In this document: piece after piece, positions 6,611 through 50,552 of the stretch
How the letters are laid out: the number at the start of each line of letters is the position of its first letter
Numbering within the stretch: position 1 is the first letter of the stretch
Source: Christensenella sp. UBA7703
Lineage (GTDB): Bacteria > Bacillota > Clostridia > Christensenellales > CAG-138
NCBI GenBank assembly: GCA_002482505.1
Contig: DLGD01000037.1
Span: 2,888-66,887, forward strand
Reading direction: 5' to 3'
DNA length: 64,000 nucleotides
Position numbers and translations under genes: made by a program
The notes under the pieces: model-generated
Seen by the model: only the letters and a program-made list of their open reading frames with translations
Told to the model about the DNA's origin: nothing
Databases searched by the model: none

Positions 6611-6796
6611 CTATTTGAAACTTTGTGCGGCTGATCATTTTTGCGCCTCTCGCGGTTCATCGAGTTTGCACATTCAACGTAAGTAGAAAATTAACTTTTG
6701 TCAACGGTAGCCTGTCTGCATATAATGATATTCAGAATTATTCTGTCAAAAGGAATACAGCAAAGCGCAATACAGCGCATGGAATCAGGAGACAGC

Positions 6797-10514: not shown

Positions 10515-10590
10515 CGTTGCCAATGCCGCTTGAGAGCCTGATGCACTATCTTGAAACAAAGGCGTGCCGGTAAATTTTGGATGGAATTGT

Positions 10591-10631
10591 AAGAGCGGGG
10601 AATCGTCCACACGGCCGCGCTCTTATTTTTT
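10591..10631 (+). terminator. Rho-independent terminator after the GGDEF gene
   Basis: AAGAGCG…CGCTCTT stem followed by ATTTTTTG. Confidence 0.7.
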
Positions 10632-10744
10632 GTTTCTCGCGCGGTGGGTTTATGGTAAAATAGCCCTACGCCGGAAAGAAAACGTACGGTGTGGAAAACG
10701 CATGGCAATGCGGTAAGTTCAGCCGCTGCCGGGCAAGGAGCAAC

Positions 10745-19294: not shown

Positions 19295-20224
19295 TTATCT
19301 CTCTTCGCGATAATACGGCTTGCCCTTGCTCTTGGGGCCTGCAATTTTGCTGCCGAAGATGGTCAGCGCGATGAGCGTCATCACATACGGAATCATCTGG
19401 AAGAGCTGATACGGCAGCAGGTTGGTGCCAACCTGAAGCCTGAGCTGCATCGCGTCAAAGAAGCCGAACAGCAGGCAGGCAAGCAACACACCGGAGCCCG
19501 ACCAGCGGCCAAAGATAACAGCGGCCAGCGCGATGAACCCGCGCCCCGCGACGATGCCGTCGGAATATGTGTTGACATAGCAGGTGGTAAGATACGCTCC
19601 GCCCATGCCGGCGAGGAAGCCGCAGATGATGCACGCGATGTACTTCGTGCGGATGACGTTGATGCCCATGGTCTCGGCGGCTTTGGGATATTCGCCGACT
19701 GCTTTGAAGTTGAGCCCCGATTTGGTGCGGTTGAAGTAGATCATCGTGATGATGACGATCAGATACACCGCATAGACCATCGGGGTTTGGTCAAAGAGCA
19801 GCTTGCCGAGGAAGGGGATGTCCTTGAGCACGGGGATGGAGATGGTCTTCATCAGCGTGGCCTGCGCGAGCGTGGAGCTCACGCCGAACACGACGCGATA
19901 GATAAACGAAGCCAGCGCCGGCGCAAAGATATTCAGCGCCATGCCGTAGACAATCTGCTGTCCTGCCAGTGTAATCGTGCAAAACGCATAGACCATGTTG
20001 ACCAGCACGCCGCCCAGCGCGCCGCAGAGCACGCCGAGGAAGGGGTTGCCCGTCCAGTAGCAGACGAGGAAGCCAACGAGAGAACCGAACGCCATGATGC
20101 CGTCGAGGCCAATGTTGACGAGGCCCGCCCGCTCGGAATAGAGTTCCGCAAGCGCCACGAACAGCAGCGGCGTTGCCATGCGGACGGCGGAGATGAGCAA
20201 ATCGGAAACCATAGACCAGCTCAT
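19295..20224 (-). CDS. ABC transporter permease (BMP/nucleoside system, second permease)
   Basis: 309 aa polytopic protein. Its start overlaps the stop of the upstream permease by 4 nt, and it sits in an operon with the BMP lipoprotein. Confidence 0.85.
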   Translation of the reverse strand: MSWSMVSDLLISAVRMATPLLFVALAELYSERAGLVNIGLDGIMAFGSLVGFLVCYWTGNPFLGVLCGALGGVLVNMVYAFCTITLAGQQIVYGMALNIFAPALASFIYRVVFGVSSTLAQATLMKTISIPVLKDIPFLGKLLFDQTPMVYAVYLIVIITMIYFNRTKSGLNFKAVGEYPKAAETMGINVIRTKYIACIICGFLAGMGGAYLTTCYVNTYSDGIVAGRGFIALAAVIFGRWSGSGVLLACLLFGFFDAMQLRLQVGTNLLPYQLFQMIPYVMTLIALTIFGSKIAGPKSKGKPYYREER

Positions 20225-21282
20225 ACGGATTTAACCCCCTTTTTCTCGAAGAGGTTCATGACAAAATTACGAACCTTCGGCAGATACATCATCGAAGAAC
20301 CCGCGACGGCGAAGATGATCACCAGCGCCTGAATGATATCGATCACGCTGGTGGGCACGCCGGTGCCGACCTGCATCGTCGTGCTGCCGACGCGCAGAAC
20401 CGCAAAGAAGTAGGCAACCACGACCGTCGCCAGCGGGTGCAGCTGCGCAATCAACGCCAGCGCCACGCCGTCGAACCCATAGCCGCCACCGTAGCCGCTG
20501 ATGAGGCGGAACTGCGTACCGAGGATATCCGCGGCGCCGCCAAGTCCCGCAATTGCGCCGGAGACGATAAACGCCGTGAGCATGTATTTTTTGACCGAAA
20601 GACCGTTATAACTGCTCGCAACCGGGTTGAAGCCAACCGCGCGGAGCTGAAAACCCTTGGATGTGTAGAAGAGGAAATACCAGATTGCAATGCCGAGCAG
20701 GACAGCGATCACGATGCCCCATGTGATGCGAAGATCGGGAATGATGCGTCCAAGCTTCGTTGCGTCCGGCACGGGCGCGGTCTGCGGCACGCTGCCTTCG
20801 CGAAGGGCGGTTGTGTAAAGATAACCCATAAAGAGCGTCGCGACATAGTTGAACATGATCGTGGTGATCATCTCGTTGAGCCCGCGCCAGGTCTTCAGAA
20901 GCCCCGGCAGCAAGCCCCAGATGCCGCCTGCAACGGTGCCCGCGAGCACGGCGAGGATGGTTACCCACCAGCCCTCGTGCCCGATGAGCAGGCTGACCGT
21001 GATGGCAGCCATTGCCCCCGCGAGAAACTGTCCTTCGCCGCCGAGGTTGAACACCCCGCAACGATAGGCAAAGCAGGTGCAAAGCCCCGTGAAGATCAGC
21101 GGCATGGCGCGCACGACGGTGTTTGCAAGGTTTGTCTTGCTGCCGAATGCGCCTTTCATCAGAAAGCCGATTGCCTCGACCGGGTTTTTGCCGAGCGCCA
21201 GGATAATCAGCATACCGATGACAAACGCCAGCAGGATGGAGAGAATCGGAATCAGGATATTGAGCGTCTTTGTTTTTTGCAC
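20221..21282 (-). CDS. ABC transporter permease (BMP/nucleoside system, first permease)
   Basis: 353 aa polytopic protein. It contains the FNLGGEGQ motif typical of the branched-chain/ribose-type permease fold. Confidence 0.85.
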   Translation of the reverse strand: MQKTKTLNILIPILSILLAFVIGMLIILALGKNPVEAIGFLMKGAFGSKTNLANTVVRAMPLIFTGLCTCFAYRCGVFNLGGEGQFLAGAMAAITVSLLIGHEGWWVTILAVLAGTVAGGIWGLLPGLLKTWRGLNEMITTIMFNYVATLFMGYLYTTALREGSVPQTAPVPDATKLGRIIPDLRITWGIVIAVLLGIAIWYFLFYTSKGFQLRAVGFNPVASSYNGLSVKKYMLTAFIVSGAIAGLGGAADILGTQFRLISGYGGGYGFDGVALALIAQLHPLATVVVAYFFAVLRVGSTTMQVGTGVPTSVIDIIQALVIIFAVAGSSMMYLPKVRNFVMNLFEKKGVKSV

Positions 21283-21297
21283 TTCGTTTCCCCTCCT

Positions 21298-22806
21298 TTA
21301 CTTGCCCGCCATCGCGAGGCTGATGGTTGAAATCGGCGGATTCTTGCCGGAATACTCGCCCATGACCTTGCCTTCGAACATGACGATGATCCGATCGGAC
21401 AGTTGCAGCACCTCGTCAAAGTCCGCGCTGATGAGCAGCACCGCGCAGCCCGCGTCTCTTGCCGCAATCATGTTGTCGCGGACATAGCGCGTCGCGCCGA
21501 TGTCGAGGCCGCGCGTGGGATGGACGGCGACGAGCAGATCCGGCTTGGCTTCGAGCTCGCGCGCGAGGATGACTTTTTGCTGGTTGCCGCCGGAGAGGGA
21601 GCGGATCTCCTGATCCATACCCTGACAGCGGATATCATATTTGGCGCGCATCGTCTCCGAATAGGCGCGCATGGCTTTTTTCTTGAGGTGCCAGCCGTTG
21701 AGGTCACAAAACGCACAGTCCTGCGTGCTCTTAAGCAACAGGTTTTCTTCCACCGTCATGTTGCCGACGAGGCCCATGCGGTTGCGGTCTTCCGGAATGT
21801 GGCTGACGTTCTTTTCAATGAAGTCCGCCGCGGTCACATGAGACACCTTGCAGCCTTTGAGGATGACCTCGCCCGCTTCTGCCATCGAAACGCCGGTGAC
21901 GATCTGGCTTAGCTGGCTCTGCCCGTTTCCGTCCACGCCCGCGATGCCGAGGATTTCGCCCTTACGCACCATCATCGAAACGTCATTGAGACCGTTATGC
22001 TTGCTGGTCTTGTTGAAATCCACGTTTCTGAGCTCGATGACCGGCTCGTCGGTGGATTCCTTCTTTTCATATTCGCATTCGACAAGGTCGCGCCCGATCA
22101 TCAGGTTTGCGAGCTCTTTTCCGTCTGTTTCGCCGGCGGCAAGGGTTTGGATCGTCTTGCCCGCGCGCAGGATGGTCACGCGGTCGCTGACATGCAGCAC
22201 CTCGCGCATCTTGTGGCTGATGAAGACGATGCTCTTGCCCTCTGCCTTGAGCTTGTCGATGACGGCATAGAGACCTTCGACCTCGATGTCGGTGAGCGCT
22301 GCGGTCGGTTCGTCGAGAATGAGCAGTTCCGCGCCGCGATAGAGCGCCTTGAGAATCTCCACGCGCTGCTGTGCGCCAACGGAGATATCGGTGATCTTTG
22401 CTTCGAGGTCGATGTTTAAACCATAGCGCCACGAAAGCTCCAGAATTTCTTTTCTGCGCGCGGCGTGGTCGATGAAGATGCCCTTGTAGCGCTTATCGCC
22501 GAGGATGATGTTCTGCATCACCGTCATGGCTTCCACGAGCATGAAGTGCTGGTGCACCATGCCGATGCCGAGGCGAACCGCTTCGGCAGGAGAGTCGATT
22601 TCAACCTTTTTGCCGCGGAGGTAAATGGAACCCTCCGTCGGTTGATACAGGCCGATGAGCACGTTCATCAACGTGCTTTTTCCTGCGCCATTTTCGCCAA
22701 GCAGGGTGTGTACTTCGCCTTCGCGCACATCAAAATTGATGTCCTTGTTGGCATAGAAGTCCCCAAACTGCTTGCTGATATGCTCCATACGGAGAATCTC
22801 GCCCAT
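21298..22806 (-). CDS. ABC transporter ATP-binding protein with duplicated NBDs
   Basis: Walker A GENGAGKST, signature ISVGAQQRVEI, and a second NBD with LSGGNQQK. The start is moved to MGEILRMEHISKQF (ATG 22806, RBS GGGAAGGGGA) because the 79-aa N-terminal extension in the ORF track covers promoter-like DNA. Confidence 0.9.
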   Translation of the reverse strand: MGEILRMEHISKQFGDFYANKDINFDVREGEVHTLLGENGAGKSTLMNVLIGLYQPTEGSIYLRGKKVEIDSPAEAVRLGIGMVHQHFMLVEAMTVMQNIILGDKRYKGIFIDHAARRKEILELSWRYGLNIDLEAKITDISVGAQQRVEILKALYRGAELLILDEPTAALTDIEVEGLYAVIDKLKAEGKSIVFISHKMREVLHVSDRVTILRAGKTIQTLAAGETDGKELANLMIGRDLVECEYEKKESTDEPVIELRNVDFNKTSKHNGLNDVSMMVRKGEILGIAGVDGNGQSQLSQIVTGVSMAEAGEVILKGCKVSHVTAADFIEKNVSHIPEDRNRMGLVGNMTVEENLLLKSTQDCAFCDLNGWHLKKKAMRAYSETMRAKYDIRCQGMDQEIRSLSGGNQQKVILARELEAKPDLLVAVHPTRGLDIGATRYVRDNMIAARDAGCAVLLISADFDEVLQLSDRIIVMFEGKVMGEYSGKNPPISTISLAMAGK

Positions 22807-22969
22807 AGACCACGTCCCCTTCCCGAATTCCGGCGGATGGCAAAGCGCTTGCCCGGTACTATCGTATGTGTTTTTTGTTTTACGTTTTGTGAGTATGAAA
22901 GATTGTTGCGTGATGATGACTGTTTTTGGCTTGCTTATGAATCGGTAATGAAAAATCGAATCTACAAGC

Positions 22970-23003
22970 AATATAACAAACGTTCCGTACGGAAACCGTA
23001 CGA
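22970..23003 (-). promoter_or_regulatory. Promoter module B: extended -10 (TGTTATATT) preceded by two CGTACGG repeats
   Basis: The minus strand reads TCGTACGG-TTT-CCGTACGG-AACGTTTGT-TATATT. The repeat starts are 11 bp apart, and 9 nt separate the second repeat from the -10 hexamer. Confidence 0.5.
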
Positions 23004-23107
23004 AACGTCCTTGTTTCGCCGCGCTCAGGCGTTCATCTTCCATTTTTTTCTTTCATTTTCACGAGGGCAAAATGTTGGTTTTGCTTCCGGAAAACTGATT
23101 TCCAAAT

Positions 23108-23141
23108 AATATATCATATCAACCGTACGAGAACCGTACGG
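23108..23141 (-). promoter_or_regulatory. Promoter module A: extended -10 (TGATATATT) preceded by two CGTACGG repeats
   Basis: The minus strand reads CCGTACGG-TTC-TCGTACGG-TTGATATGA-TATATT, with identical architecture to module B located 138 bp downstream in the transcription direction. Confidence 0.5.
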
Positions 23142-23255
23142 ATTTGGGGAAAGATATATTATTTCTTTTTGGGCTTCGCCCAAACTCAAATAAACAAATA
23201 ATATGTGCTGATTCATTAATGATTTAGAAAACAATTAACTAAAAGATAAGAAAAG

Positions 23256-23317
23256 AAAAAAACCACCCCCTGCGAAAGCAAGAGGTGGAAGTCATACCGC
23301 GGAAGGAGCGAATTCCC
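23256..23317 (-). repeat. Hairpin/terminator module copy 1 (34-nt core identical to copy 2)
   Basis: The core GGTGGAAGTCATACCGCGGAAGGAGCGAATTCCC (23284-23317, plus strand) is identical to 23385-23418. On the minus strand an 11-bp stem (23263-23288) is followed by TTTTTTT. Confidence 0.7.
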
Positions 23318-23354
23318 GTGCGGGATTCGTTGCTTTCCTAAAAAGCAGCAATCT

Positions 23355-23418
23355 AAAAATAAATCCACCCCTTGCTAAACAAAGGGTGGAAGTCATACCG
23401 CGGAAGGAGCGAATTCCC
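23355..23418 (-). repeat. Hairpin/terminator module copy 2; probable terminator of the glnN-asnB operon
   Basis: Same 34-nt core. The minus-strand stem CCACCCTTTG/CAAGGGGTGG (23365-23389) is followed by ATTTATTTTT. It begins about 30 nt after the asnB stop. Confidence 0.7.
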
Positions 23419-23447
23419 ACGGTATTCGAGGGTGCCAGGGTCAAGAT

Positions 23448-25025
23448 TTATACCGCGCTAGCGCCGTAATTCGCGAGAACGCGAGCCGACGGGTCGTTGA
23501 CATTGCAGCCTTCCCAACTACGGTTCGGCATCCAGAAGTCCTTGACCATATGCGCTTGGCCGGGGTATTCGGCCTCAAACAGTTCGCGGTACAGCAGCGA
23601 TTCCTTCGTGAAGGGCGTCGCGAAGGTGTATTTCTTGCTGCGCTCGGCAAACTCCTCGTCCGTATAGAGCTTCTCGGCATATGCCTTGATCTGGTCGACC
23701 ATGGAATGCCCGACCGCGTCCGAGAACGCGGCTTTTTCGCGATAGAGAATATCCTGTGGCAGATAGTCCCCCTCAAATGCGCGGCGAAGCAGGTATTTGC
23801 CTTTGCCAAAGCGGTTCATCTTGAGGGCGGGGTTGATGCTCATGACATACTTGACGAAGTCCAGATCGCCAAACGGCACGCGCGCCTCGAGAGAGTTTGC
23901 GGAGATGCAGCGATCCGCGCGAAGCACGTCGTACATATAAATTTCGTCGATGCGCTTCTTGGCTTCCTTCTGGAATTCCTCTTCGTTCGGCGCAAAGTCC
24001 GTATACTTGTAGCCAAACAATTCGTCTGAGATTTCGCCCGTGAGCAGCACCCGAAGGTTCGTGTTTTCGTGGATGTACTTGCAAACAAGATACATGCCGA
24101 CGCTTGCGCGAATCGTCGTGATGTCATACGTCTCGAGAATCCGCACGATGGTGCGCAGGGAGGCGATGACCTCCTGCGGCGTCATGATGACCTCCGTGTG
24201 GTCGGAACCCAGATAGTCCGCAACCTGTTTGGCGTATTTCAGGTCGATTGCGTCGCCCACCATGCCGATGGCATAGGTGCGGATCGGGTGCGGCAGATAC
24301 TTGTTGGCTACCGCACAGACTAGCGAGCTGTCTAGGCCGCCGCTGAGCAGGAAGCCGAGCGGCACGTCCGCGTCCAGGCGCTTGACGATGCCGAGGGTGA
24401 GTTTTTCGCGGATGTTGTCGCAGACCGCGTCCAACTCGTCCTTGGAATACTCCTTAACATCGGTCAGGTTTGCATACTGGACAAACTCGCCGTCTTTCCA
24501 ATAATGTCCCGGCGGGAAGGGCTTGATCGTCTCCGCCAGCCCGGCGATGTTTTTCGCCTCGCTGGAGAAGAGAATTTTGCCGTCTTCGTCGTAGCCATAG
24601 AACAGCGGGCGGATGCCGATCGGGTCTCTTGCCGCAATCAGCGAGTCGCTTTTGTGATCATAAAGGATCAGCGCATACTCCGCGTCGAGCATCTGGAACA
24701 TGTCTGTCCCGTACCGTTGATATAAGGGTAAGAGCAGCTCGCAATCCGAGCCGCTCTTGAAGTCGTATCCTGAGAATAATTCGTCACGCATCTTGCGAAA
24801 GCCGTAGAGTTCGCCGTTGCAAACGACCGCGTCCCCGCCTCGCTCAAATGGCTGCATGCCGCTCTTTTCCAGACCCATGATCGTCAGACGATGGAACATC
24901 AGGTATCCATCCCCAACGCTCAACATACGCGACAGATCAGGTCCTCGTGAGATCGTCTTGTAAAATCCATCGACAAGCAGGTCCAGCGGGATGCGCTTGC
25001 CGAGGTATCCCATGATTGAACACAT
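23448..25025 (-). CDS. asnB: Asparagine synthase (glutamine-hydrolysing)
   Basis: The N-terminal MCSIMGY supplies the Cys2 nucleophile of class II amidotransferases. The PP-loop LLSGGLDSS is present. 525 aa, starting 27 bp downstream of glnN, which suggests an operon. Confidence 0.9.
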   Translation of the reverse strand: MCSIMGYLGKRIPLDLLVDGFYKTISRGPDLSRMLSVGDGYLMFHRLTIMGLEKSGMQPFERGGDAVVCNGELYGFRKMRDELFSGYDFKSGSDCELLLPLYQRYGTDMFQMLDAEYALILYDHKSDSLIAARDPIGIRPLFYGYDEDGKILFSSEAKNIAGLAETIKPFPPGHYWKDGEFVQYANLTDVKEYSKDELDAVCDNIREKLTLGIVKRLDADVPLGFLLSGGLDSSLVCAVANKYLPHPIRTYAIGMVGDAIDLKYAKQVADYLGSDHTEVIMTPQEVIASLRTIVRILETYDITTIRASVGMYLVCKYIHENTNLRVLLTGEISDELFGYKYTDFAPNEEEFQKEAKKRIDEIYMYDVLRADRCISANSLEARVPFGDLDFVKYVMSINPALKMNRFGKGKYLLRRAFEGDYLPQDILYREKAAFSDAVGHSMVDQIKAYAEKLYTDEEFAERSKKYTFATPFTKESLLYRELFEAEYPGQAHMVKDFWMPNRSWEGCNVNDPSARVLANYGASAV

Positions 25026-25052
25026 GATCTTCGTTCTCCCGTACAGTATTTT

Positions 25053-27152
<2,100 letters not shown>

Positions 27153-27288
27153 TTCTCCTCCTATACCCTTTCCTAAACACCCTTGCTTCTCTGCTGTGTG
27201 ATTCCTTCATAATATAACTGCCATCGGCGCATTGTTTCGGAATACCGTCTCGCAACCCCGCTTCAGCTCATTTTGTGTATTTACCTTA

Positions 27289-27334
27289 TAAAAAGCGGCA
27301 ACGACACAGCGGTACTTCCGCGGCGCCTTTGCCG
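27289..27334 (-). terminator. Intrinsic-terminator-like hairpin in the glnN leader (candidate attenuator)
   Basis: The minus strand reads ACGGCAA-(27 nt with inner GCGG/CCGC stem)-TTGCCG-CTTTTTA. It starts about 18 nt after the predicted -10 element and lies about 140 nt before the glnN RBS. Confidence 0.5.
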
Positions 27335-27352
27335 TTAAAATAATATGCGGAT

Positions 27353-27381
27353 AGTATACAGCGCGAGGGTACGCTTGTCAA
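27353..27381 (-). promoter_or_regulatory. Sigma-A-type promoter of glnN-asnB
   Basis: The minus strand has TTGACA (27381-27376), a 17-nt spacer and TATACT (27358-27353). Confidence 0.65.
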
Positions 27382-27508
27382 CCGAAAATTTGTGCAGGAT
27401 TTCCTGCGGAAAAACGCAAAAACCGTTGTTGTTTTGACTGGAAAGATGCTAAAAATAAATTATGTACCCTTTTTTGCAGTTTGAAATCATATATCATTCA
27501 CAATATTC

Positions 27509-27537
27509 TTGACAGAAAATCCTATATTATGTATACT
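27509..27537 (+). promoter_or_regulatory. Sigma-A-type promoter of glnA
   Basis: TTGACA (27509-27514), a 17-nt spacer and TATACT (27532-27537). These are the same hexamers as the divergent glnN promoter. Confidence 0.65.
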
Positions 27538-27547
27538 CGCAGAAACA

Positions 27548-27594
27548 AAGACGTTCCTTCCGGGGGTACTCCTGCCCGGTTTGGGCGTCTTTTG
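27548..27594 (+). terminator. Intrinsic-terminator-like hairpin at the 5' end of the glnA leader (candidate attenuator)
   Basis: AAGACG…(inner CCGGG/CCCGG stem)…CGTCTTTTG. Two further hairpins followed by U-rich runs lie at 27627-27657 and 27743-27797, within the ~265-nt leader. Confidence 0.5.
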
Positions 27595-27806
27595 CAGTAA
27601 AAAAAGCGTATAAAAACGGCGGAAAAAACGTATGAATGGATGAGATTCATTCGTTTTGGCCATTTTCAAACGATTCTGTGCTAAACTAAACCATAAGAAG
27701 TGTGTTTTGCCGCTGGAAAACCGCGGCTCAAGACACAAAAACCGTCCGCGCCGCGAAAAGCAGCAGGTGCTGCCCGAGCGGGCGACGCTATTTATTATAG
27801 GAGAGG

Positions 27807-29036
27807 ATGTGCGCGGAAATGATGTACACCGCACAGGAAATTGCCGATTATTGCGCAGCGGAGGATGTGAAGTTCATCCGCCTCGCGTTTTGCGATGTAT
27901 TCGGCGTGCCGAAAAATATCTCCATTATGCCGGAGGAGCTGCCGCGCGCGTTTTCGGACGGCATCTCGATCGATGCCTCCGCCATTCGCGGCTTTGGCGA
28001 CGAGGCACACTCGGATCTTTTGCTGTTTCCGGACAGCGAGACGCTCACCGTGCTGCCCTGGCGGCCGAGCCACGGGCGTGTTGTGCGCCTGTTTGCGGAT
28101 ATCCGCCGCCCGGATGGGTCGCTCTTTCCGCAGGACACGCGCAATATCTTAAAGAAGACGATCGCCGAAGTCGCGCGCGAGGGCGTTACCGTCAACTTCG
28201 GCACGGAGTTTGAGTTTTATCTCTTCCGGCTGGATGAGGACGGAAACGCGACAACGATTCCATACGACAACGCGAAATATATGGACATCGCCCCGCTGGA
28301 CCGCGGGGAAAATGTCCGCCGCGAAATCTGCCTGACGCTGTGTGAGATGGGCATCCGCGCGGAGAGTTCGCATCATGAAGACGGCCCGGGGCAAAACGAG
28401 ATCGATTTTCGCTATGGCGACGCGATGCGCGCGGCGGACAATGCGATCACGTTCCCTTCCGTTGTGCGCACGGTCGCGATGCGAAACGGCCTTTGGGCAG
28501 ATTTTTCGCCTAAGCCACTGCCAAACGAAAGCGGAAACGGCATGCACATCAACCTTTCCTTGGCAAAACCGCATAGCGAAGGCGCGCGGGATGCGTTCAT
28601 GGCAGGGTTGATGGAGCATATCTGCGAAATCACCGCGTTTCTCAATCCCATGGACGCGAGCTATGCGCGCCTTGGAGAATGCAAAGCGCCGCGCTACGTC
28701 ACATGGTCGCCGGAAAATCGCAGCCAACTCATCCGCATCCCCGCCGCAAAGGGTGAATATGAACGGATCGAACTGCGTTCGCCGGACCCGGCGGGAAACC
28801 CGTATCTCGCGTTTGCGCTGATCCTTGCCGCGGGTGCGGACGGAATCCGGCGAAATCTGGTTGCGCCGCCGCCAACAAATGTGAATCTCTTCACGGCGGA
28901 TGCTTCGATTACCGGCAAACTCGCCCAGCTCCCGCGCACGCGCGCGGAGGCGGCAAACATCGCGAAAAACAGCGCGTTTGTGCGCATGGTTTTACCCGAA
29001 GCCATCATCGAGGCATATACCGCCGAGGCAGAGTGA
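27807..29036 (+). CDS. glnA: Glutamine synthetase (type I-like, short form)
   Basis: NFGTEFEFYLF, SSHHEDGPGQNEIDF, SGNGMHINLSL, ENRSQLIRIP and RIELRSPDPAGNPY are GS catalytic motifs. The start is ambiguous (ATG 27807, 27819 or 27822). The RBS AGGAGAGG sits at 27799-27806. Confidence 0.9.
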   Translation: MCAEMMYTAQEIADYCAAEDVKFIRLAFCDVFGVPKNISIMPEELPRAFSDGISIDASAIRGFGDEAHSDLLLFPDSETLTVLPWRPSHGRVVRLFADIRRPDGSLFPQDTRNILKKTIAEVAREGVTVNFGTEFEFYLFRLDEDGNATTIPYDNAKYMDIAPLDRGENVRREICLTLCEMGIRAESSHHEDGPGQNEIDFRYGDAMRAADNAITFPSVVRTVAMRNGLWADFSPKPLPNESGNGMHINLSLAKPHSEGARDAFMAGLMEHICEITAFLNPMDASYARLGECKAPRYVTWSPENRSQLIRIPAAKGEYERIELRSPDPAGNPYLAFALILAAGADGIRRNLVAPPPTNVNLFTADASITGKLAQLPRTRAEAANIAKNSAFVRMVLPEAIIEAYTAEAE

Positions 29037-29114
29037 ACACGGAGCAATGATTTCGTATGCGTTGATTCAACCGTATGACGCACACAAAGAGAAACAGCAG
29101 AGGGAGACTTTCGC

Positions 29115-29708
29115 TTGCCATATACAGGCGCAAAGCAGAATAGCGTATTGGTCGTATCCGGATCGGAACGCTCCCGCGAGACACTCGTGGAGGTGTTTGC
29201 TTCCTCGCGTTATGCGCCCGTGGCCGCGCGCGGCTCTGCGGCGGAAGCGAGGCGGCTGGTGCTGGATACGCCATTTTCGCTGGTCTTTATCAACACCCCA
29301 TTGCCGGACGAGACGGGGTCCCAGCTTGCGCTCGATCTTTCCAATAGCCGCAATTGCTGTGTTGCGATACTGGTGCCGGGGGATAATTTTGATTCCGTGA
29401 ATGAGCAGATGGAGGACGCAGGGGTACTGACGCTGAGCAAACCCTGCACCGCGCAGCAACTGCGGCAGGCTGCGGCAATGATGAGCGCAACGCGCTTTAA
29501 GCTCGCCGATCTGGAGCAAAGAACCGCAACGCTGGAGGAAAAGATGGAGGAGATTCGTCTGGTCAACCGCGCGAAGTGGATGCTGATTGAGCGGCGCGGC
29601 ATGGACGAAGCCACCGCACACCGGTATATCGAGAAGTTGGCAATGGACGCACGGCAGACGAGAAGGCTCGTCGCGCAGACGCTGATTCGCTCGCTGGACA
29701 ACGACTGA
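29115..29708 (+). CDS. ANTAR-domain RNA-binding antiterminator with atypical (pseudo-)receiver domain
   Basis: The C-terminus EEIRLVNRAKWMLIERRGMDEATAHRYIEKLAMDARQTRRLVAQTLI is an ANTAR domain preceded by a coiled coil. The N-terminal receiver fold has SG instead of DD after beta1 and N instead of the phospho-acceptor D (LVFINTPLPD). TTG start with RBS GAGGGAG. Confidence 0.85.
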   Translation: MPYTGAKQNSVLVVSGSERSRETLVEVFASSRYAPVAARGSAAEARRLVLDTPFSLVFINTPLPDETGSQLALDLSNSRNCCVAILVPGDNFDSVNEQMEDAGVLTLSKPCTAQQLRQAAAMMSATRFKLADLEQRTATLEEKMEEIRLVNRAKWMLIERRGMDEATAHRYIEKLAMDARQTRRLVAQTLIRSLDND

Positions 29709-29770
29709 TTTTTTTTAAAAACAAGGACCGGCACAAACACTACAATATTAAGCAAATTAAGATGATACCG

Positions 29771-29793
29771 GCGGGAGCAATCCCGCTTTTTTT
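29771..29793 (+). terminator. Rho-independent terminator after the ANTAR gene
   Basis: GCGGGA-GCAA-TCCCGC followed by TTTTTTT. Confidence 0.8.
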
Positions 29794-29884
29794 GTGCTAC
29801 ACTAATGTTGTCACCAAACTAAAAATGTATACGTGAGCGCAACGATGCGCCATCCATGGCTTTCCATGCTTGCCGGAGGAGTTT

Positions 29885-31240
29885 ATGGAGCAATTTGACG
29901 TTCTCATCGTCGGCGCGGCAACCGCCGGTAGTTTCCTTGCGCGCAGGCTCGCGGAAAGCGGGCACCGCGTGCTCGTGCTGGAGCAGCACCCGAAAGAAAA
30001 GCTGGGAAGAAAGCCGGAGGTGCTCCGCATCGCAAGGGCGGATATTGCGCGCTATGCGCTGCCCATGCCGGAGGAGGCGGATGATCTTGCCTATACCTGT
30101 TCCGGCGGCAGCGTTTTTTCTGCGCAGAACCATTACCCAAAGGAGATTTCGTGTGAATCGGTTGGGGTCTATCGGTTCCGTTATGTCGCGCGGATGAATG
30201 CCTGGGCGCGGGCAGCGGGGGCGGAGATTCGATACCAGGCATCGTTTGTCGATTTTCTATATGAAGGCGGGAAAATTGCGGGCGTGGTGTATGAGCAGGA
30301 TGGAGCACGACACGAGGTGCGGGCAAAACTGGTCGCCGATTGCTCCGGTGCTGCCGCCGTTGCCAGAACCAAACTGCCGGATGGCTATGGCGTGGAGAAT
30401 GCGCCGACTGCACCGGATGATTTACTGTATGTGACCTTGCGGCATGTCGTCTATCATGAGCCGGAGCATTCTGTCTCCCGCATGCGCGGCTGGCCGTATT
30501 ATCCGGCTTGGGTAGCGCCGGAGGGGCGGGTGGACTGCGCGATTCTCGGCACTTGGGCAAGCGGTTCTTTTGACGAAGGGGAGCGGGTGTTTGCCGCGTT
30601 TCAGCGCGCGGTCAGGCTCCCTCGGTACACTACTTTATGTACGGAGCGCGGCACGCTACTGAATCGGCACCCGCTGCATTCGTTTGTTGCGGATGGGTTT
30701 CTTGCCTCCAGCGACGCGGCATACGTAGCCGTGTCTAGCTCGCTAGCCGGGTTTTCGGTGTGCATGCCGCAGCTTGCCATTGCAGCGGAGGAGATCGGCC
30801 GTCTGCTGAACGAAGGCGGATATTTGTCGCGCGCGCGGCTTTGGAACATCAACACGCGTTTTTTTTCGGAACAGGGGCTTGTGCTTGTGGCGCGAAATGC
30901 AATGCAGCCCGCGCTTTTGTATACAACGGCCTCGGAGGACGATTTTTTCTTCCGCCATAATCTGTTTTATTCCGAACAAACACTCACCGCACTTTCGCAG
31001 GGCGCGGTGCCGGTGTTCTCCGCAAAAGAAACGTTACGCAATGCGTTGGCGCTCCTCGGCGGTGTGCTGACCGGAAAAGTGCGCGTTGCCGCGGCTGGAT
31101 GGTTCCTTCGAAACGTTCAAAACGGCATGCGGGCGGTCAGGTTTTATGCGGACTATCCCGCCGGTGAAGCGGATCTGGATGCCTGGGGTTCCCGCGCAGA
31201 GGCGTTTTGGAAGAAATGCAGGAAAACAGCGCGCGGTTGA
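29885..31240 (+). CDS. FAD-dependent oxidoreductase (geranylgeranyl-reductase/halogenase-like fold)
   Basis: The N-terminal dinucleotide-binding motif is DVLIVGAATAGSFLARRLAESGHRVLVLE. The ATG at 29885 follows GGAGGAGTTT. The specific function is unknown. Confidence 0.6.
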   Translation: MEQFDVLIVGAATAGSFLARRLAESGHRVLVLEQHPKEKLGRKPEVLRIARADIARYALPMPEEADDLAYTCSGGSVFSAQNHYPKEISCESVGVYRFRYVARMNAWARAAGAEIRYQASFVDFLYEGGKIAGVVYEQDGARHEVRAKLVADCSGAAAVARTKLPDGYGVENAPTAPDDLLYVTLRHVVYHEPEHSVSRMRGWPYYPAWVAPEGRVDCAILGTWASGSFDEGERVFAAFQRAVRLPRYTTLCTERGTLLNRHPLHSFVADGFLASSDAAYVAVSSSLAGFSVCMPQLAIAAEEIGRLLNEGGYLSRARLWNINTRFFSEQGLVLVARNAMQPALLYTTASEDDFFFRHNLFYSEQTLTALSQGAVPVFSAKETLRNALALLGGVLTGKVRVAAAGWFLRNVQNGMRAVRFYADYPAGEADLDAWGSRAEAFWKKCRKTARG

Positions 31241-31289
31241 GAAAGCCAATCGCAATCATTTTGAGACTCGATGGTGAGGATCCATGCTT

Positions 31290-31318
31290 TCCCCCTGTAT
31301 TTACGGGGGGATTTTTTT
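31290..31318 (+). terminator. Rho-independent terminator
   Basis: TCCCCCTG-6 nt-CGGGGGGA stem followed by TTTTTTT. Confidence 0.8.
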
Positions 31319-31332
31319 GCGTGAAATTCCTC

Positions 31333-31360
31333 TTGCATTGGCTATTCTTCCTGTTATAAT
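31333..31360 (+). promoter_or_regulatory. Strong sigma-A-type promoter of the tetR-SCP2-M24 unit
   Basis: TTGCAT (31333-31338), a 16-nt spacer and TGTTATAAT (extended -10, hexamer 31355-31360). Confidence 0.65.
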
Positions 31361-31411
31361 TGAATTAATCAACAAATCATTTATTTATAATTTAAACAAA
31401 GGAACCCGAAT

Positions 31412-31993
31412 ATGCGAAACAAACTCGATGAACAGATCATCCTTGACGCGGCGCTGAAGGTGTTTTCCCGTTTTGGCTACAAAAAATCCACGTTGGAGGA
31501 TATCGCGAGCGAATTAGGCATGACCAACACCGCGATGTATGCCTACGCCGCAAGCAAGCGCGATCTTTACGAGCGCACGGTGTCCTATGTGATGAAGCGC
31601 TGGCAGTCCGGTGTGGAGCAGGCGGTGAACGCGAAAACTACCGCGCAGGAGAAGATGACCGCGCTTTGCGAAAACGCGCTGTATTATCTTGCGCAGGATC
31701 AGGAGTTTTGTGCCCTGCTCAGGAACGATCCGCAGATTTTTCCGATGTTTCCGACGGTCGATCCATATGAAGAGATCAACCGCGATTCCGTGCGGATGAT
31801 CGAGCGGATTCTGTTGTTTGGGCAGCAGACAGGGGAGTTTTGCGCGGTGGATGCCCCGGCGGTCAGCGAGGTGCTGTTTTCGATCTATAAGAATTTCATC
31901 ATCCACACGTATATCAACAGCGAGGAAGATTACACCAGCCGTTATCTGCCGATCACGATGGAGCTGATTTTAAACGGGATTAAGAAGGGTTGA
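31412..31993 (+). CDS. TetR/AcrR family transcriptional regulator
   Basis: The N-terminal HTH reads ILDAALKVFSRFGYKKSTLEDIASELGMTNTAMYAY. 193 aa. Confidence 0.85.
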   Translation: MRNKLDEQIILDAALKVFSRFGYKKSTLEDIASELGMTNTAMYAYAASKRDLYERTVSYVMKRWQSGVEQAVNAKTTAQEKMTALCENALYYLAQDQEFCALLRNDPQIFPMFPTVDPYEEINRDSVRMIERILLFGQQTGEFCAVDAPAVSEVLFSIYKNFIIHTYINSEEDYTSRYLPITMELILNGIKKG

Positions 31994-32110
31994 TGTGCGC
32001 TGATGCGCACGGTTCGCGTTAAGAAGACGCAAAACATTTCAACAAAGCACATCAGGAGAATGGATTCTCCCCAAATAAAAACTGCATATCGGAAAGGAGC
32101 ACATCAAATC

Positions 32111-32503
32111 ATGGTCAAGTATCTTTCCCAAGACTGGCGCAAAGAGGTGGAGGCGCGGCTTTCCGCCCAACTCACACCGGACAAGATGAACAACCTTACC
32201 TCCTCGATGAACAATCTCTATCTCAACTGCTCGGACGGCAAGAGTCACTATTTCTTTGTCGGCTTTGTCGATGGCAAGGTGGACAGCGTGCTGGTTGGCG
32301 AGGGCGAAGGCCCGAAGGCAGAGTTTGTGATCTCCGGCGAATATGAAACCTTCGCGAAGATCTCCCGCGCGGAACTTGGCGCGCAAAAGGCGCTCATGGG
32401 CGGCCTGCTCAAGCTCAAGGGCAACATGGTCAAGGCGCTAAAGCTCGCGTCTCTGGTCGATCGCCTGAACAAGATCATCGCCACCATTGAGACCGAGTAT
32501 TGA
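32111..32503 (+). CDS. SCP2 sterol-carrier-like domain protein
   Basis: …GEGPKAEFVISGEYETFAKISRAELGAQKALMGGLLKLKGNMVKALKL matches the SCP-2 C-terminal pattern. The ATG at 32111 follows AAGGAGCAC. Confidence 0.7.
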   Translation: MVKYLSQDWRKEVEARLSAQLTPDKMNNLTSSMNNLYLNCSDGKSHYFFVGFVDGKVDSVLVGEGEGPKAEFVISGEYETFAKISRAELGAQKALMGGLLKLKGNMVKALKLASLVDRLNKIIATIETEY

Positions 32504-32511
32504 GGAGGGAA

Positions 32512-33732
32512 ATGGATATGTTTGACAAAACCAGCCCGTTTTATATCGATTTTCCCGGACGCATCAAGGCTATCCAAGCCGAGATGGCGAAAGAAAAGAT
32601 TGATCTGTATTTGGGGTCCCGTCTGCGTACGATGAGTTGGACGACGGACGCGTTCTTTCCCTGGCGCAGTTTTATTGTAATCCCTGCGGAAGGGCTGCCG
32701 ACAGCGTTTACGTTCGTGATTGACGCGGCGCGCGCGGCGGACGAGAGCTGGCTGGACGAGGATCACGTGATGGGCTTTGCGCCGATGGGCGGACAGGATC
32801 AGATCACGCAGATCTCCGATTTCATCAAGGATTATCTGCCACACGGCGGAAGAGTCGGCGTGGAAGCGGGTATGAGTAACTATCTGCCGGAAGGGTACCT
32901 CACCTATTACGAATACAAGTCGTTTGAGGCAGCACTGCCGGACTGCACGCTCGTCAACGCGCATCCGATTGTGGATCGTTTGCAGATGATCAAGGACATC
33001 GGCACCATCAACCGATTCCGCGAAGCATCCCGTATCGTGGATATCGGGCACGAAGCGGTGCTTGCCGCGATCAAAAACGGCGGATGGAAAGGCATGACAG
33101 AGACGGAGATTGCCGGGCTTGCGGGCTATGCCATGCGCAAGGCGGGCAGTACGTTTGAGTGGTCATTCACCGGCGGAAACGAGATCGCCGCGGGTTATCG
33201 AACCGGGCTTGCGGGCGGCGCCTGCACACCCGCAACCACGAAGAAGGTTGCATCGGGCGAACCGCTGATGGTGGATATCCACGCGCTCTTTGGCCTATGC
33301 TGCGGCGACCACAGCCACAACTATCTGATTGCTCCCGCGAGCGAGCGGCAGCTTTGGCACGCGAAAAACTTTGTGGATATGGTTGCGCTCACGCTCAAGA
33401 CATACCGCGCGGGCATCTCGCCTTCCTCGCTGGCGGCGGAGATGATGGACTTTGCGGAGTCTCGCGGGTTTGCGGACTTCATGGTGCCGGGGTTTGAACA
33501 CGGCATCGGCATGCTCGGCGACGAGTGGAGAATCGGCAAACACGACGGCCCGTTCCCGTATTGGACGGACCCGGATCACGGATATCTGGAGAACGAAGTG
33601 CTCATCTGCGCGATGCAGTATGCCTGCCCGGACGAGAACATCGGCTTCCGTTATGAAAACCCGATTCTCCTCACCAAAGACGGCTGCGAATACATGAGCA
33701 AATTCCCGCTGGCGATTGAAGTGATTGAGTAA
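32512..33732 (+). CDS. M24-family (creatinase/prolidase fold) peptidase-like protein
   Basis: It has a creatinase-type N-domain followed by a pita-bread fold (…GEPLMVDIHALFGLCCGDHSHNY…FEHGIGM…YENPILLTKDG). The start is ATG 32512 or 32518, with GAGGAGGG immediately upstream. Confidence 0.8.
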   Translation: MDMFDKTSPFYIDFPGRIKAIQAEMAKEKIDLYLGSRLRTMSWTTDAFFPWRSFIVIPAEGLPTAFTFVIDAARAADESWLDEDHVMGFAPMGGQDQITQISDFIKDYLPHGGRVGVEAGMSNYLPEGYLTYYEYKSFEAALPDCTLVNAHPIVDRLQMIKDIGTINRFREASRIVDIGHEAVLAAIKNGGWKGMTETEIAGLAGYAMRKAGSTFEWSFTGGNEIAAGYRTGLAGGACTPATTKKVASGEPLMVDIHALFGLCCGDHSHNYLIAPASERQLWHAKNFVDMVALTLKTYRAGISPSSLAAEMMDFAESRGFADFMVPGFEHGIGMLGDEWRIGKHDGPFPYWTDPDHGYLENEVLICAMQYACPDENIGFRYENPILLTKDGCEYMSKFPLAIEVIE

Positions 33733-33769
33733 GATTCTTACAAAGGGTAGCTTCCAAACACCAAAAACA

Positions 33770-33800
33770 CAAAAGCACGGTTTTTGCGCCGTGCTTTTCT
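33770..33800. terminator. Bidirectional terminator between convergent genes
   Basis: AAAAGCACGG-TTTTTGCG-CCGTGCTTTTC. Confidence 0.75.
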
Positions 33801-33808
33801 GTTTCGCC

Positions 33809-35596
33809 TTAGTTATCCCACAGATCACCTTGGACGATGTCCGCTTTATGGACGGTCGCCGTGATGTCAAACGTTCCGACAAACACTCGGTTGTATTCTA
33901 TATCCCGGTCGTAGACGTCCCACACGAGCCGAATCTCGAATATATCGGGCAAGTACTTTGGCACAATCTGCATGAAGTGCCCGCGTGTGCCGCTGTCCCA
34001 GTCGTCAAATGTGGTAAACGTTCCGTAGCTTTCCACCCACAGCTTAGCCGCCGCTTCAGTATACTGTCCTCCCTTATACCAACATTCCAGCTCTACTCCG
34101 TCCATATAAATATGCTGGACAGTATAGGATGCCTCAGGAGGACAGTAAAGACCGTCGATCGTATACCGTATAAATAGATAGTGCTGCGTGGGGTCAAATC
34201 CAAGCCGCTCCAGCGTGAGCGAAACGCCCTCCACTGTTTGACTACCTTCAAGCGGGCAGTACGACCTCTCGTTTCTGCCATCTGCCGCCAGTCGTCGCGT
34301 TTCTTCGCACCAGGCTTCCCGCTCCGCGTCGTCCGCTGGCAACGTGACTTCACCCGTGTGCGGATTGATATAAAACGCAATCTGTATCCGCTCTTTTGCG
34401 ACGGTATAATCGACTCCGTCTCCTGTTTGGAATGGATCGATCCCTCCTTCACCAAGCACTGCCACGAGCACGTTTTCCGGCTGATTCGCCGCGTCTGCAT
34501 ACCAAGGAAGCAGCGTTAGCGCGGTCAGTGTGGATGGGTAATCGCCACCATAATTCTTTCCTTCTTCCGTGTGTGGCTCGTATACCGCGCTGAGCTGTGT
34601 TCCGACAGTATGATAGCCATCAAGGTACATGTCACGAAATGTATTCACACCCTTGTTCTGCCAATTGCACTCGCCAATCGTCCCCAATAGCACGCCTTCC
34701 TTGGAAGCCGCCGCGTCCTTGAGCGTAAACACTCCTTGTACAATGTTGAGCGGGAACGCTTCATTGGGCATGTCGGAGATGGCTTCCGCCTGTTCAGTCG
34801 CATTCGACTCCAAACTGGACAGCGATTCTTTAACCAATTCATCGCGTTTCGCCTCGATTTCCTCCGTCGGTATTTCGTAAACAAAATCAAACGAGAAACT
34901 TCCAAGATTTTCCCCGCGTTGCCCGTTTTCGTCCCATTGGTAGAGTGTTCCGCTCAATTTCATAGGCATGCCGGAGACGATGGTTTGGTCGTCGATGCGG
35001 AACCACATTTCGTGATCTGCGCCAAGCCCCGAAGGATCCGCCATAGCGATTGCGGGTAGCGCGCGCACCGTATCGTCTGCTTTTGCGTAGGCGGGGTAAT
35101 CATTTCCGCCGACGGTCAACACAAAATCAAAGTTGTACAAGCGGCTGTTATCGCCGGTCTTGGAATCTTCGCTATTGAAGGTAACATGCACTTCCGGCGG
35201 GTTTTCGTTCGGATAATAACAGACGCCGACAGGTTCGAAGGTGATACCGTCAACCTCTGCCGTACCGCTTAGCGGGCTAAAGAACGTCATGCCGGCAATG
35301 GCTGCGTCGGCATACTGCTGCGCCTTTGCCAGACGATCATTCACCGCCTGCTCGCTCTGTGCATACTCCTTTGCCTGCTGCGTGCTGCTCCAGTAGACGG
35401 CATAAGCTGCGCAGGCGGAGAGCAGGAGAAGAACAGCTGCGATCAGAATCAGAAGCGCTTTTCGCTGCCGCGTCATGACTGGAACCGGCTTAACAGGCGC
35501 GGGGGAAAGGCGCTCATCGTTCAATCGATTCAGCAAGCGTTTCTGAAACTCCGGCGTTGCGTGAACGCGGGCAAATCCGGCTTCATAGCGATTCAT
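33809..35596 (-). CDS. Putative anti-sigma factor: single-pass membrane protein with a large extracytoplasmic domain
   Basis: It overlaps the 3' end of the ECF sigma gene by 14 nt. A short cytoplasmic N-terminus is followed by one TM helix (ALLILIAAVLLLLSACAAYAV) and a ~520-aa external domain with no motif I recognise. Confidence 0.5.
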   Translation of the reverse strand: MNRYEAGFARVHATPEFQKRLLNRLNDERLSPAPVKPVPVMTRQRKALLILIAAVLLLLSACAAYAVYWSSTQQAKEYAQSEQAVNDRLAKAQQYADAAIAGMTFFSPLSGTAEVDGITFEPVGVCYYPNENPPEVHVTFNSEDSKTGDNSRLYNFDFVLTVGGNDYPAYAKADDTVRALPAIAMADPSGLGADHEMWFRIDDQTIVSGMPMKLSGTLYQWDENGQRGENLGSFSFDFVYEIPTEEIEAKRDELVKESLSSLESNATEQAEAISDMPNEAFPLNIVQGVFTLKDAAASKEGVLLGTIGECNWQNKGVNTFRDMYLDGYHTVGTQLSAVYEPHTEEGKNYGGDYPSTLTALTLLPWYADAANQPENVLVAVLGEGGIDPFQTGDGVDYTVAKERIQIAFYINPHTGEVTLPADDAEREAWCEETRRLAADGRNERSYCPLEGSQTVEGVSLTLERLGFDPTQHYLFIRYTIDGLYCPPEASYTVQHIYMDGVELECWYKGGQYTEAAAKLWVESYGTFTTFDDWDSGTRGHFMQIVPKYLPDIFEIRLVWDVYDRDIEYNRVFVGTFDITATVHKADIVQGDLWDN

Positions 35597-50452: not shown

Positions 50453-50552
50453 TTCTTCCCACGCAAATGGCACACCCCGCGAAAGCGGGCGTCGCAAAGC
50501 TATAGGGCCTAACGGCAGAAGTGCCCACGGCAGCCAGTTTCCGAATGAAGAA
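50453..50552 (+). promoter_or_regulatory. c-di-GMP-I (GEMM-I) riboswitch aptamer candidate
   Basis: P1 is TTCTTC (50453-58) paired with GAAGAA (50547-52). The core ACGCAAATGGCACACC-CCGC-GAAA-GCGG-GCGTCGCAAAGC-TATAGGGCCTAA…GCCC…AGC parallels the conserved GEMM-I core (ACGCACAGGGCAAACC…GNRA…GGGACGCAAAGCC…GGCCUAA) as I remember it from Vc2. Confidence 0.75.

Follow-up and report, generated by a model that had tools for sequence, protein, structure and literature searches.

We analyzed a nitrogen-assimilation locus in a 64-kb stretch of DNA from Christensenella sp. UBA7703 (the window; all coordinates refer to the whole stretch). The locus contains two divergent operons, glnN-asnB on the minus strand and glnA with an ANTAR-domain regulator gene on the plus strand, and each operon begins with a short leader element that may be the target of the ANTAR protein. 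In the first operon, asnB follows glnN, which encodes a type III glutamine synthetase (GS), after a gap of 27 nt. In the second, glnA, which encodes a type I GS-like protein and likely starts at the ATG at 27822 from alignment with relatives, is separated from the ANTAR gene by 78 nt without a terminator in the gap. Table 1 lists the features. The promoters of the two operons have identical hexamers and spacing, and both are kept in seven close relatives (L001-L007); they place the predicted transcription starts at about 27544 (glnA) and 27346 (glnN). An earlier reading of the letters of this region, here called the original prediction, had described the divergent units with matched promoters, a terminator-like first hairpin in each leader and an ANTAR gene after glnA, and all three descriptions held. 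The promoters each agree with the consensus at 11 of 12 positions, the first hairpins fold at -22.9 (glnA) and -23.9 kcal/mol (glnN), the ANTAR domain scores 59 bits in Pfam, and glnA immediately precedes the ANTAR gene in all 79 informative loci.

The terminator hairpin of the glnN leader is followed by CUUUUU (CUUUUUAU at 27295-27288) and is almost invariant among the relatives. The glnA terminator has the U tract UCUUUU, which lies partly within the stem, and the pairing of its apical stem is maintained through sequence changes in the relatives. A hexaloop scan found one ANNGNN hairpin in each leader, hereafter P, at the 5' base of the terminator. In the glnA leader, the terminator takes its 5' arm from the loop and 3' arm of P, and in the glnN leader the whole of P is inside that arm. 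Since the loop and 3' arm of P double as the terminator 5' arm, P and the terminator are mutually exclusive. The predicted folding energy of P alone is 0 kcal/mol for glnA and -6.3 kcal/mol for glnN, compared with about -23 kcal/mol for the terminators, which suggested that termination is the default and that read-through would need a stabilising factor. The glnA P reads GAAC-AAAGGC-GUUC in the relatives.

We then compared P with the hairpins known to be recognized by ANTAR proteins. The published seed set contains nasF P2 (GGAU-AAAGGC-GUCC), eutG P2 (GAAGC-AAAGAC-GCUUC), eutA P2 (UUAAGC-AAAGGC-GCUUAA) and eutP P1 (ACAC-AAUGGC-GUGU) (Ramesh 2012, Fig. S1, PMC3369931). The loops AAAGGC and AAAGAC found here, together with the closing C-G pair, equal those of the validated ANTAR seed hairpins of nasF, eutG, eutA and Listeria monocytogenes eutV. 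Both leaders thus carry a hexaloop with A at position 1 (A1) and G at position 4 (G4), on a stem of at least 3 bp (3 bp in glnA and 4 bp in glnN) that overlaps a terminator, as ANTAR substrates do.

Characterized ANTAR antiterminators are described as dual-hairpin elements (PMC3369931), in which a further hexaloop hairpin, P1, stands a short linker upstream (5-12 nt in eut). No such P1 accompanies P in either leader. A scan for pairs of ANNGNN hexaloop hairpins (stem 3 bp or longer, linker up to 15 nt) found no site in the two leaders, and its counts in the window (13 on the plus and 4 on the minus strand) were at the level of shuffled sequence (about 13). The original prediction was thus correct in finding no canonical dual hexaloop, but it had overlooked the single canonical hexaloop hairpin in each leader. 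One alternative hexaloop in the glnN leader, UUUU-AACGGC-AAAG (loop from 27336), was rejected because it shares sequence with P and because relatives have insertions that disrupt it.

Two more terminator-like hairpins had been proposed in the glnA leader, but this remainder (27595-27806) varies in length and sequence among relatives, folds no better than shuffles and contains no ANTAR-type loop, and its hairpins do not appear to be parts of a switch. The apical sequence GTAC(C/T)(G/C)CTG noted earlier in both first hairpins is present in the window; it is not conserved in relatives and is probably a coincidence. The Rfam covariance search that had been suggested as a check returned no match in the leaders, whether to the glutamine riboswitch, the T-box or any other cis-regulatory family (20000-34000 scanned at E up to 10). 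A GlnR/TnrA box (TGTNAN7TNACA) was not found in 27153-27806 with one mismatch allowed, and the window-wide count of this box was that expected by chance.

To define the element across genomes, an alignment of homologues of the ANTAR protein was used to retrieve 80 loci (L001-L080; 847 kb) from GTDB genomes of Oscillospiraceae, Ruminococcaceae, Christensenellaceae and other uncultured Clostridia. A unit was defined as RRC-A(A/U/C)NG(G/A)C-GYY, then a stretch able to pair with the loop and 3' arm, and finally a U run. This pattern occurred 59 times in the 847 kb, compared with one occurrence in reversed and none in shuffled sequence. We aligned 32 units drawn from L008-L080, with the clade of the window excluded. 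A1, G4, the C at position 6 (C6) and the closing C-G pair were invariant in the 32 units, while the stems and apical regions varied. The P stem was paired in 85.9% of the cells of this alignment, against 33-53% when the 3' partners were slid, and compensatory changes occurred in four of the six P pairs, two of which are unconstrained by the selection pattern. The terminator stem also covaried, including the pairs made with the variable loop position 3; examples of loop/3'-arm partners are ATCGAC-GUCGAU, AUUGGC-GCCAGU and AACGGC-GCCGUU. RNAalifold predicted the same terminator independently. The spacer between P and the terminator 3' arm ranged from 9 to 49 nt (median, 23.5 nt), and the apical loops of the terminators ranged from 3 to more than 10 nt without an A1/G4 pattern.

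Complete units also occur in tandem, about 60-70 nt apart, each with its own hexaloop hairpin and terminator. Such pairs were seen in glnN or ilvE leaders (L017, L020, L037, L038, L042, L050, L052 and L062) and in the metagenome set described below (L110, L118, L123 and L128).

The position of the unit relative to the promoter was also consistent across genomes. A promoter matching at least 9 of 12 consensus positions (mostly 11-12) lies just upstream of P in 65 of 74 units. The distance from the end of the -10 box to the first paired base of P is 5-13 nt in 55 of these units and 18-20 nt in the remaining 10, which are the glnN leaders of the window's clade. Because most units follow the -10 box so closely, there is no space in the transcript for a canonical upstream P1. 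Consistent with this, no second ANNGNN hairpin was found within 45 nt upstream in 71 of the 74 units, and two of the three exceptions are second units of tandem pairs. P thus has the features predicted for a canonical P2 (antitermination) hairpin without P1.

The 32-unit alignment was then used to train a covariance model, R1. When both strands of the window were searched with R1, which contains no unit from the window's clade, four matches were obtained (Table 1), and those ranked first and third were the glnN and glnA leaders. Both leader matches sit exactly where the promoters predict.

The genes that follow the unit are largely those of ammonium assimilation and glutamine use. Among the 80 loci selected by the ANTAR protein, the unit leads glnN in 39, glnA in 16 and asnB in 1. 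It also stands before the first gene, a class-II amidotransferase, of a glutamate-synthase-like operon (about 10 loci), before pyrG (about 8 loci, mostly directly after the ANTAR gene), and before gdhA, ilvE, guaA and nadE. About half of the 80 loci have a glnN homologue on the other strand upstream of glnA, and in roughly a dozen of these loci other genes (the glt operon) intervene. In at least 13 loci the upstream region of glnA has no unit, and there the unit is carried by glnN or pyrG. This indicates that autoregulation alone does not account for the adjacency of glnA and the ANTAR gene.

A second set of loci, picked from metagenome contigs by a 16-nt word from hairpin P, was used to lessen the bias of selecting by the ANTAR protein. 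The word matched 120 stretches, and 80 of these loci were searched with R1. A full unit was found in 33 loci, and the other 47, in which the word had matched by chance, served as an internal negative set. The genes after the unit were glnN (19), glt (14), glnA (9), pyrG (5) and gdhA (2); by eye we also named AmtB-like genes, one with a PII-like tail fused, and a gene for a nitrite-reductase-like flavoprotein. Within the sequence available for each locus, 9 of the 33 unit-bearing loci, but none of the 47 others, contained an ANTAR homologue.

Many genomes have a unit, with a promoter of its own, before pyrG (CTP synthase). It lies just 3' of the ANTAR gene, at about 6550-6715 on the plus strand, in L015, L026, L043, L044, L045 and L078-L080, and among the metagenome loci L082, L124, L136, L143 and L155 it precedes a pyrG that is divergent from glnN.

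We also examined the ANTAR protein. It aligns with Rv1626, AmiR, EutV and NasR, and the positions that contact RNA in EutV are largely kept in 120 homologues: R148 in 120, R152 in 117, H169 in 118 and M177 in 116. These residues align with K143, K147, Y164 and M172 of EutV, and M177 is the 'plug' residue that fits a hexaloop. Two other arginines of EutV, R168 and R177, are replaced by E173 and T182 in the protein of the window. In the receiver-like domain, N60 occupies the position of the phospho-acceptor Asp of Rv1626/PdtaR; the 120 homologues have Asn (105), Ser (10) or Asp (2) at this position, and the acidic pair of the receiver is replaced by S-G-S. The domain scored 29.3 bits against the Pfam Response_reg model, under the cut-off of 30.2, and does not qualify as a phosphorylatable receiver. 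No kinase gene is adjacent to the ANTAR gene at the locus. By these signs the receiver-like domain is a predicted pseudo-receiver as in AmiR, and the original model is amended in that the regulator, judged by its residues, is not a phosphorylatable response regulator. With Asn at the acceptor position, the protein presumably responds to a partner protein or a ligand and not to a kinase.

The only gene invariably adjacent to the ANTAR gene is glnA. The ANTAR-linked GlnA proteins have 398-409 amino acids and retain the metal-binding and nucleotide/ATP motifs. According to the GS enzymology of Eisenberg and colleagues, the ammonium site includes D50, S53 and the flap Glu. The flap Glu is replaced by Lys (GYEAP to xxKAP) in 74 of 78 GlnA orthologues, and S53 is replaced by Ala in 71 of 78. 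The protein of the window scored 322 bits against TIGR00653, for which the cut-off is 429, and falls outside the canonical type I GS. The ANTAR-linked GlnA is thus an atypical GS with a predicted alteration of the ammonium site.

Taken together, the validated loops, the covariation, the recovery of the two leaders by R1 and the tracking of the unit with nitrogen and ANTAR genes in two sets of loci support an antiterminator model. We propose that both operons are controlled after initiation by ANTAR-type, protein-dependent antitermination in a reduced, single-hairpin form, and we put the probability of this reading at about three in four. Transcription would start at the two matched sigma-70 promoters. 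By default, a strong intrinsic terminator would form within the first 50 nt or so of the RNA and abort the transcript. Alternatively, the first nucleotides of the RNA would fold as P, with a stem of 3-4 bp, a closing C-G pair and the hexaloop AAAG(A/G)C, in competition with the terminator, whose 5' arm needs the loop and 3' arm of P. We infer that the ANTAR protein binds P and that binding causes read-through: the protein would bind and stabilise P while the variable apical part of the terminator (median, 23.5 nt) is transcribed, terminator formation would be blocked, and polymerase would read into glnN-asnB and glnA-ANTAR. Read-through into the latter operon would amount to positive autoregulation. 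The placement of P at the very start of the transcript, together with the variable spacer, could allow the protein to bind in time even though a recruitment hairpin is missing. The original idea that one antiterminator coordinates both GS genes and asnB thus gained comparative support, with the differences that the proposed target is a single 5'-terminal hexaloop and that the regulon appears to be wider.

Several points weigh against this proposal. EutV antitermination requires both hairpins in vivo and in vitro (PMC3369931; PMC8934654), and single-hairpin antitermination is without precedent, the EutV systems being the only ones tested. The glnA P, with its stem of just 3 bp, is not predicted to be stable by itself, and the U tract of the glnA terminator is short. 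The transcription starts were taken from the promoter consensus only. The calibration of R1 was rough, and its E-values for the window were modest (0.005-0.05). Most of the loci were picked via the ANTAR protein, a bias that the set selected by the RNA motif removes only partly. Finally, the at least 13 loci whose glnA has no unit indicate that control of glnA is not universal.

The leader hairpins could instead be terminators or attenuators, or 5' stabilising stem-loops, that act constitutively or are read by a factor other than an ANTAR protein, their likeness to ANTAR loops being incidental. Stem-loops at the 5' end are known to stabilise mRNAs in Firmicutes, and the very weak P of glnA and the glnA-ANTAR operons without a unit fit this alternative. 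We nevertheless consider this explanation unlikely, since A1, G4 and C6 of the loop, like the C-G pair that closes it, stay invariant over 32 diverse units in which stems and apical regions vary, and since the loops are identical to ANTAR loops that have been validated by mutation. The presence of an ANTAR gene in 9 of 33 unit loci and in none of the 47 unit-less loci, in the set selected by the RNA, argues in the same direction, and a plain stabiliser would need neither a U tract nor a small hairpin mutually exclusive with the large one. It is very improbable that the leaders are canonical dual-hairpin substrates whose P1 was missed because transcription starts further upstream or because the P1 loop is non-standard. 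Every characterized ANTAR antiterminator does have two hairpins, and the transcription starts here are predicted. However, 65 of 74 units have a near-consensus -35/-10 pair at a fixed short distance before P, the 45 nt preceding P contain no ANNGNN hairpin in 71 of 74, the intergenic region of the window offers only P and one overlapping, non-conserved alternative, and the apical loops of the terminators vary in both size and sequence.

The inverted repeat in P (for example, ATGAGC-N6-GTTCAT) could also be read as the DNA operator of a repressor over the transcription start, not as an RNA element, because it is an imperfect palindrome directly 3' of the -10 box. This we regard as scarcely credible. 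The stem often contains G-U pairs (15 of 32 units at one pair), which would be A-C mismatches on the other strand; the conserved loop is asymmetric and occurs on the sense strand without exception; every element is joined to a terminator with a covarying 3' arm; and the second units of tandem pairs lie far from promoters.

A more detailed version of the antitermination model concerns the signal. In this version, the single-hexaloop ANTAR system lacks a recruitment hairpin, GlnA senses glutamine, glutamate or ATP and controls the ANTAR protein by contact, and the type III GS is the real assimilatory enzyme. We consider this version speculative and on balance rather unlikely. If true, the GlnA sensor would correspond, at the level of RNA, to the way in which feedback-inhibited glutamine synthetase controls GlnR/TnrA, or to AmiC-AmiR.

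The closest known elements are the eut leaders controlled by EutV/EutW in Enterococcus faecalis (PMC3369931; PMC8934654). They share with the leaders described here an A1/G4 hexaloop with a conserved closing pair at the 5' base of a terminator, mutually exclusive with it, and the identical loop sequences AAAGGC and AAAGAC; in both systems the ANTAR domain is joined by a coiled-coil linker to a receiver fold. In contrast to EutV/EutW, the system described here has no P1 recruitment hairpin, its element is at the extreme 5' end of the transcript, its regulator has neither a phospho-acceptor Asp in the receiver nor a kinase gene next to it, and its targets are ammonium-assimilation genes, not eut. 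In the EutV-RNA structure, one ANTAR dimer contacts one hexaloop; the minimal motif was accordingly redefined as a single hexaloop, P1 was proposed to be a recruitment hairpin, and searches for single-hexaloop sites were urged (Walshe 2022, PMC8934654). That structure left open why both hairpins are required and whether single-hexaloop sites occur naturally. The locus and its relatives look like a natural family of single-hexaloop, terminator-overlapping elements located where transcripts begin, and could provide a test bed for the model of separate recruitment and antitermination hairpins.

ANTAR control of nitrogen genes has itself been predicted before. A survey of Firmicutes placed predicted ANTAR substrates before GS-ANTAR operons (Ramesh 2012, Table S2, PMC3369931), with examples in Alkaliphilus metalliredigens (GS Amet_3386 and ANTAR Amet_3385), Carboxydothermus hydrogenoformans and Desulfotomaculum acetoxidans. 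As here, the substrates in those regulons precede GS, glutamate synthase, asparagine synthase and ammonium transporter genes, and the ANTAR gene lies beside a GS gene. Those sites were found with a dual-hairpin model and span 44-60 nt, whereas the units described here have one hairpin, so that the dual-hairpin model would not be expected to find them. Searches based on it would overlook a whole class of ANTAR targets. NitR of Clostridium saccharobutylicum has been described or proposed (Stutz 2007 and Fierro-Monti 1992, as cited in PMC6316151 and PMC4676874) as a nitrogen-responsive antiterminator of the GS and glutamate synthase (GOGAT) genes. An antisense RNA to the 5' region of glnA and nitrogen-dependent induction are also described for the NitR system of solventogenic Clostridium. 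As far as these citations describe it, the arrangement in C. saccharobutylicum and C. acetobutylicum, glnA and then an ANTAR regulator, is the same as that found here in one operon, while the locus of the window differs in having a divergent operon of type III GS and asnB and a GS-like GlnA of about 400 amino acids with an altered ammonium site.

AmiR of the AmiC-AmiR system in Pseudomonas aeruginosa, with a pseudo-receiver, and NasT of the NasS-NasT system in Paracoccus and others are likewise ANTAR regulators without phosphorylation control. They are restrained by a partner sensor protein encoded next to them. Here, in contrast, the invariable neighbour is a GS-like glnA and not a gene for a sensor resembling periplasmic binding proteins. 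GlnR/TnrA and the glnRA operon of Bacillus subtilis also combine a regulator and a GS in one operon and act on nitrogen-assimilation genes. However, GlnR/TnrA act on DNA, whereas the control proposed here would be exerted on RNA termination, and the intergenic region has no GlnR/TnrA box. In one cited study of R. albus, GS-GOGAT genes were reportedly induced in non-limiting ammonium.

We judge the locus to be a known kind of ANTAR nitrogen regulon with a putative new single-hexaloop antiterminator. What appears to be new is the single-hexaloop, 5'-terminal architecture, its wide and consistent use in a large clostridial lineage, including before the type III GS and several glutamine amidotransferases, and the pairing of a pseudo-receiver regulator with an atypical GS. 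No earlier description of these features was found in the literature searched, with many subscription papers and the primary NitR study outside the reach of that search. The unit could serve as a searchable regulatory code for ammonium assimilation, covering glnN, glnA, glutamate synthase, gdhA, amtB and several glutamine amidotransferases, in the largely uncultured Clostridia of gut, rumen and digesters, in which nitrogen control is poorly understood.

Table 1. Features of the glnN-asnB/glnA-ANTAR locus and R1 matches in the window
Feature	Position	Strand	Evidence
asnB, glutamine-hydrolysing asparagine synthase	23448-25025	-	Pfam Asn_synthase 1.2e-71 and GATase_7
glnN, type III GS	25053-27152	-	Pfam GSIII_N 8.5e-83, Gln-synt_C-ter, Gln-synt_C
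glnN leader terminator hairpin	27334-27296	-	minimum free energy -23.9 kcal/mol, z = -3.7
glnN hairpin P, CGGC-AAAGGC-GCCG	27334-27321	-	hexaloop scan; loop 27330-27325
glnN promoter, TTGACA-17-TATACT	27381-27353	-	consensus scan, 11/12 positions
Conserved DNA blocks between the promoters	27393-27502		palindrome TGCAGGATTTCCTGC (27393-27407, 15 nt) and AT-rich TTTTTTGCAGTTTGAAATCATATATCATTCAC (27470-27502)
glnA promoter, TTGACA-17-TATACT	27509-27537	+	consensus scan, 11/12 positions
glnA hairpin P, AAC-AAAGAC-GUU	27544-27555	+	hexaloop scan; loop 27547-27552
glnA leader terminator hairpin	27547-27592	+	minimum free energy -22.9 kcal/mol, z = -2.4
glnA, type I GS-like (GSI-alpha-like)	27807-29036	+	Pfam; matches to solved GS structures
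Receiver-like and ANTAR gene (pseudo-receiver, NitR-like)	29115-29708	+	Pfam ANTAR 3.9e-16, 59 bits (cut-off 27.3)
Terminator closing the glnA-ANTAR operon	29770-29787	+	7-bp stem, then TTTTTTT
R1 match 1, glnN leader	27339-27290	-	23.5 bits, E = 0.005
R1 match 2, candidate third unit	23021-22968	-	19.6 bits, E = 0.04
R1 match 3, glnA leader	27538-27602	+	19.5 bits, E = 0.046
R1 match 4, between a GGDEF gene and tex	10549-10634	+	17.4 bits, E = 0.15

Two further R1 matches lie outside the leaders. The second-ranked match is tentatively a third unit. It reads GCGAAAC-AAGGAC-GUUUCGU, with a 7-bp P stem and a terminator, and lies about 160 nt upstream of an operon for a Bmp/PnrA-type ABC transporter (22806 to 18218). 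No consensus promoter was found near it, and its 5' half is missing from the relative L004. The sequence CGTACGG-N4-CGTACGG occurs twice upstream of the same ABC transporter operon (23140-23123 and 23002-22985, minus strand), about 115 nt apart. The second copy is the apical stem of the candidate unit, and L004 has a deletion exactly between the two copies; the pair could be a DNA operator or a recombination-prone repeat. The fourth match was rejected as a unit: it starts with AAAC-AAAGGC-GU, has a poor P stem and a promoter-like -10 sequence after it, and in all likelihood is an ordinary terminator whose resemblance to the unit arose by chance.

The blocks TGCAGGATTTCCTGC and TTTTTTGCAGTTTGAAATCATATATCATTCAC, located between the two promoters, are conserved exactly 80 bp apart in the window and in L001-L007, whereas more distant loci lack them. 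Candidate identities are a site for a DNA-binding regulator and an UP element, and the blocks may add control of initiation. An extended -10-like sequence, TGCTAAACT, lies at 27679-27687 on the plus strand in the glnA leader, 3' of the first terminator, and is kept as TGCTACACT in L001, L002 and L004. A possible role is that of a second promoter, whose transcripts would avoid the attenuator.

Just 3' of asnB, two direct repeats of about 62 nt lie on the minus strand (about 23418-23355 and 23317-23256), each with GGGAATTCGCTCCTTCCGCGGTATGACTTCCACC at its start and its own terminator hairpin with a U run at its end. The second repeat gave a weak PyrR-like Rfam match (E = 8), and two copies of the repeat are also present in L001 and L004. 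At gathering scores, Rfam returned only one match in the whole window, outside the leaders: a cyclic di-GMP-I (c-di-GMP-I) riboswitch aptamer at 50459-50545 on the plus strand, with 73 bits against a gathering score of 35.

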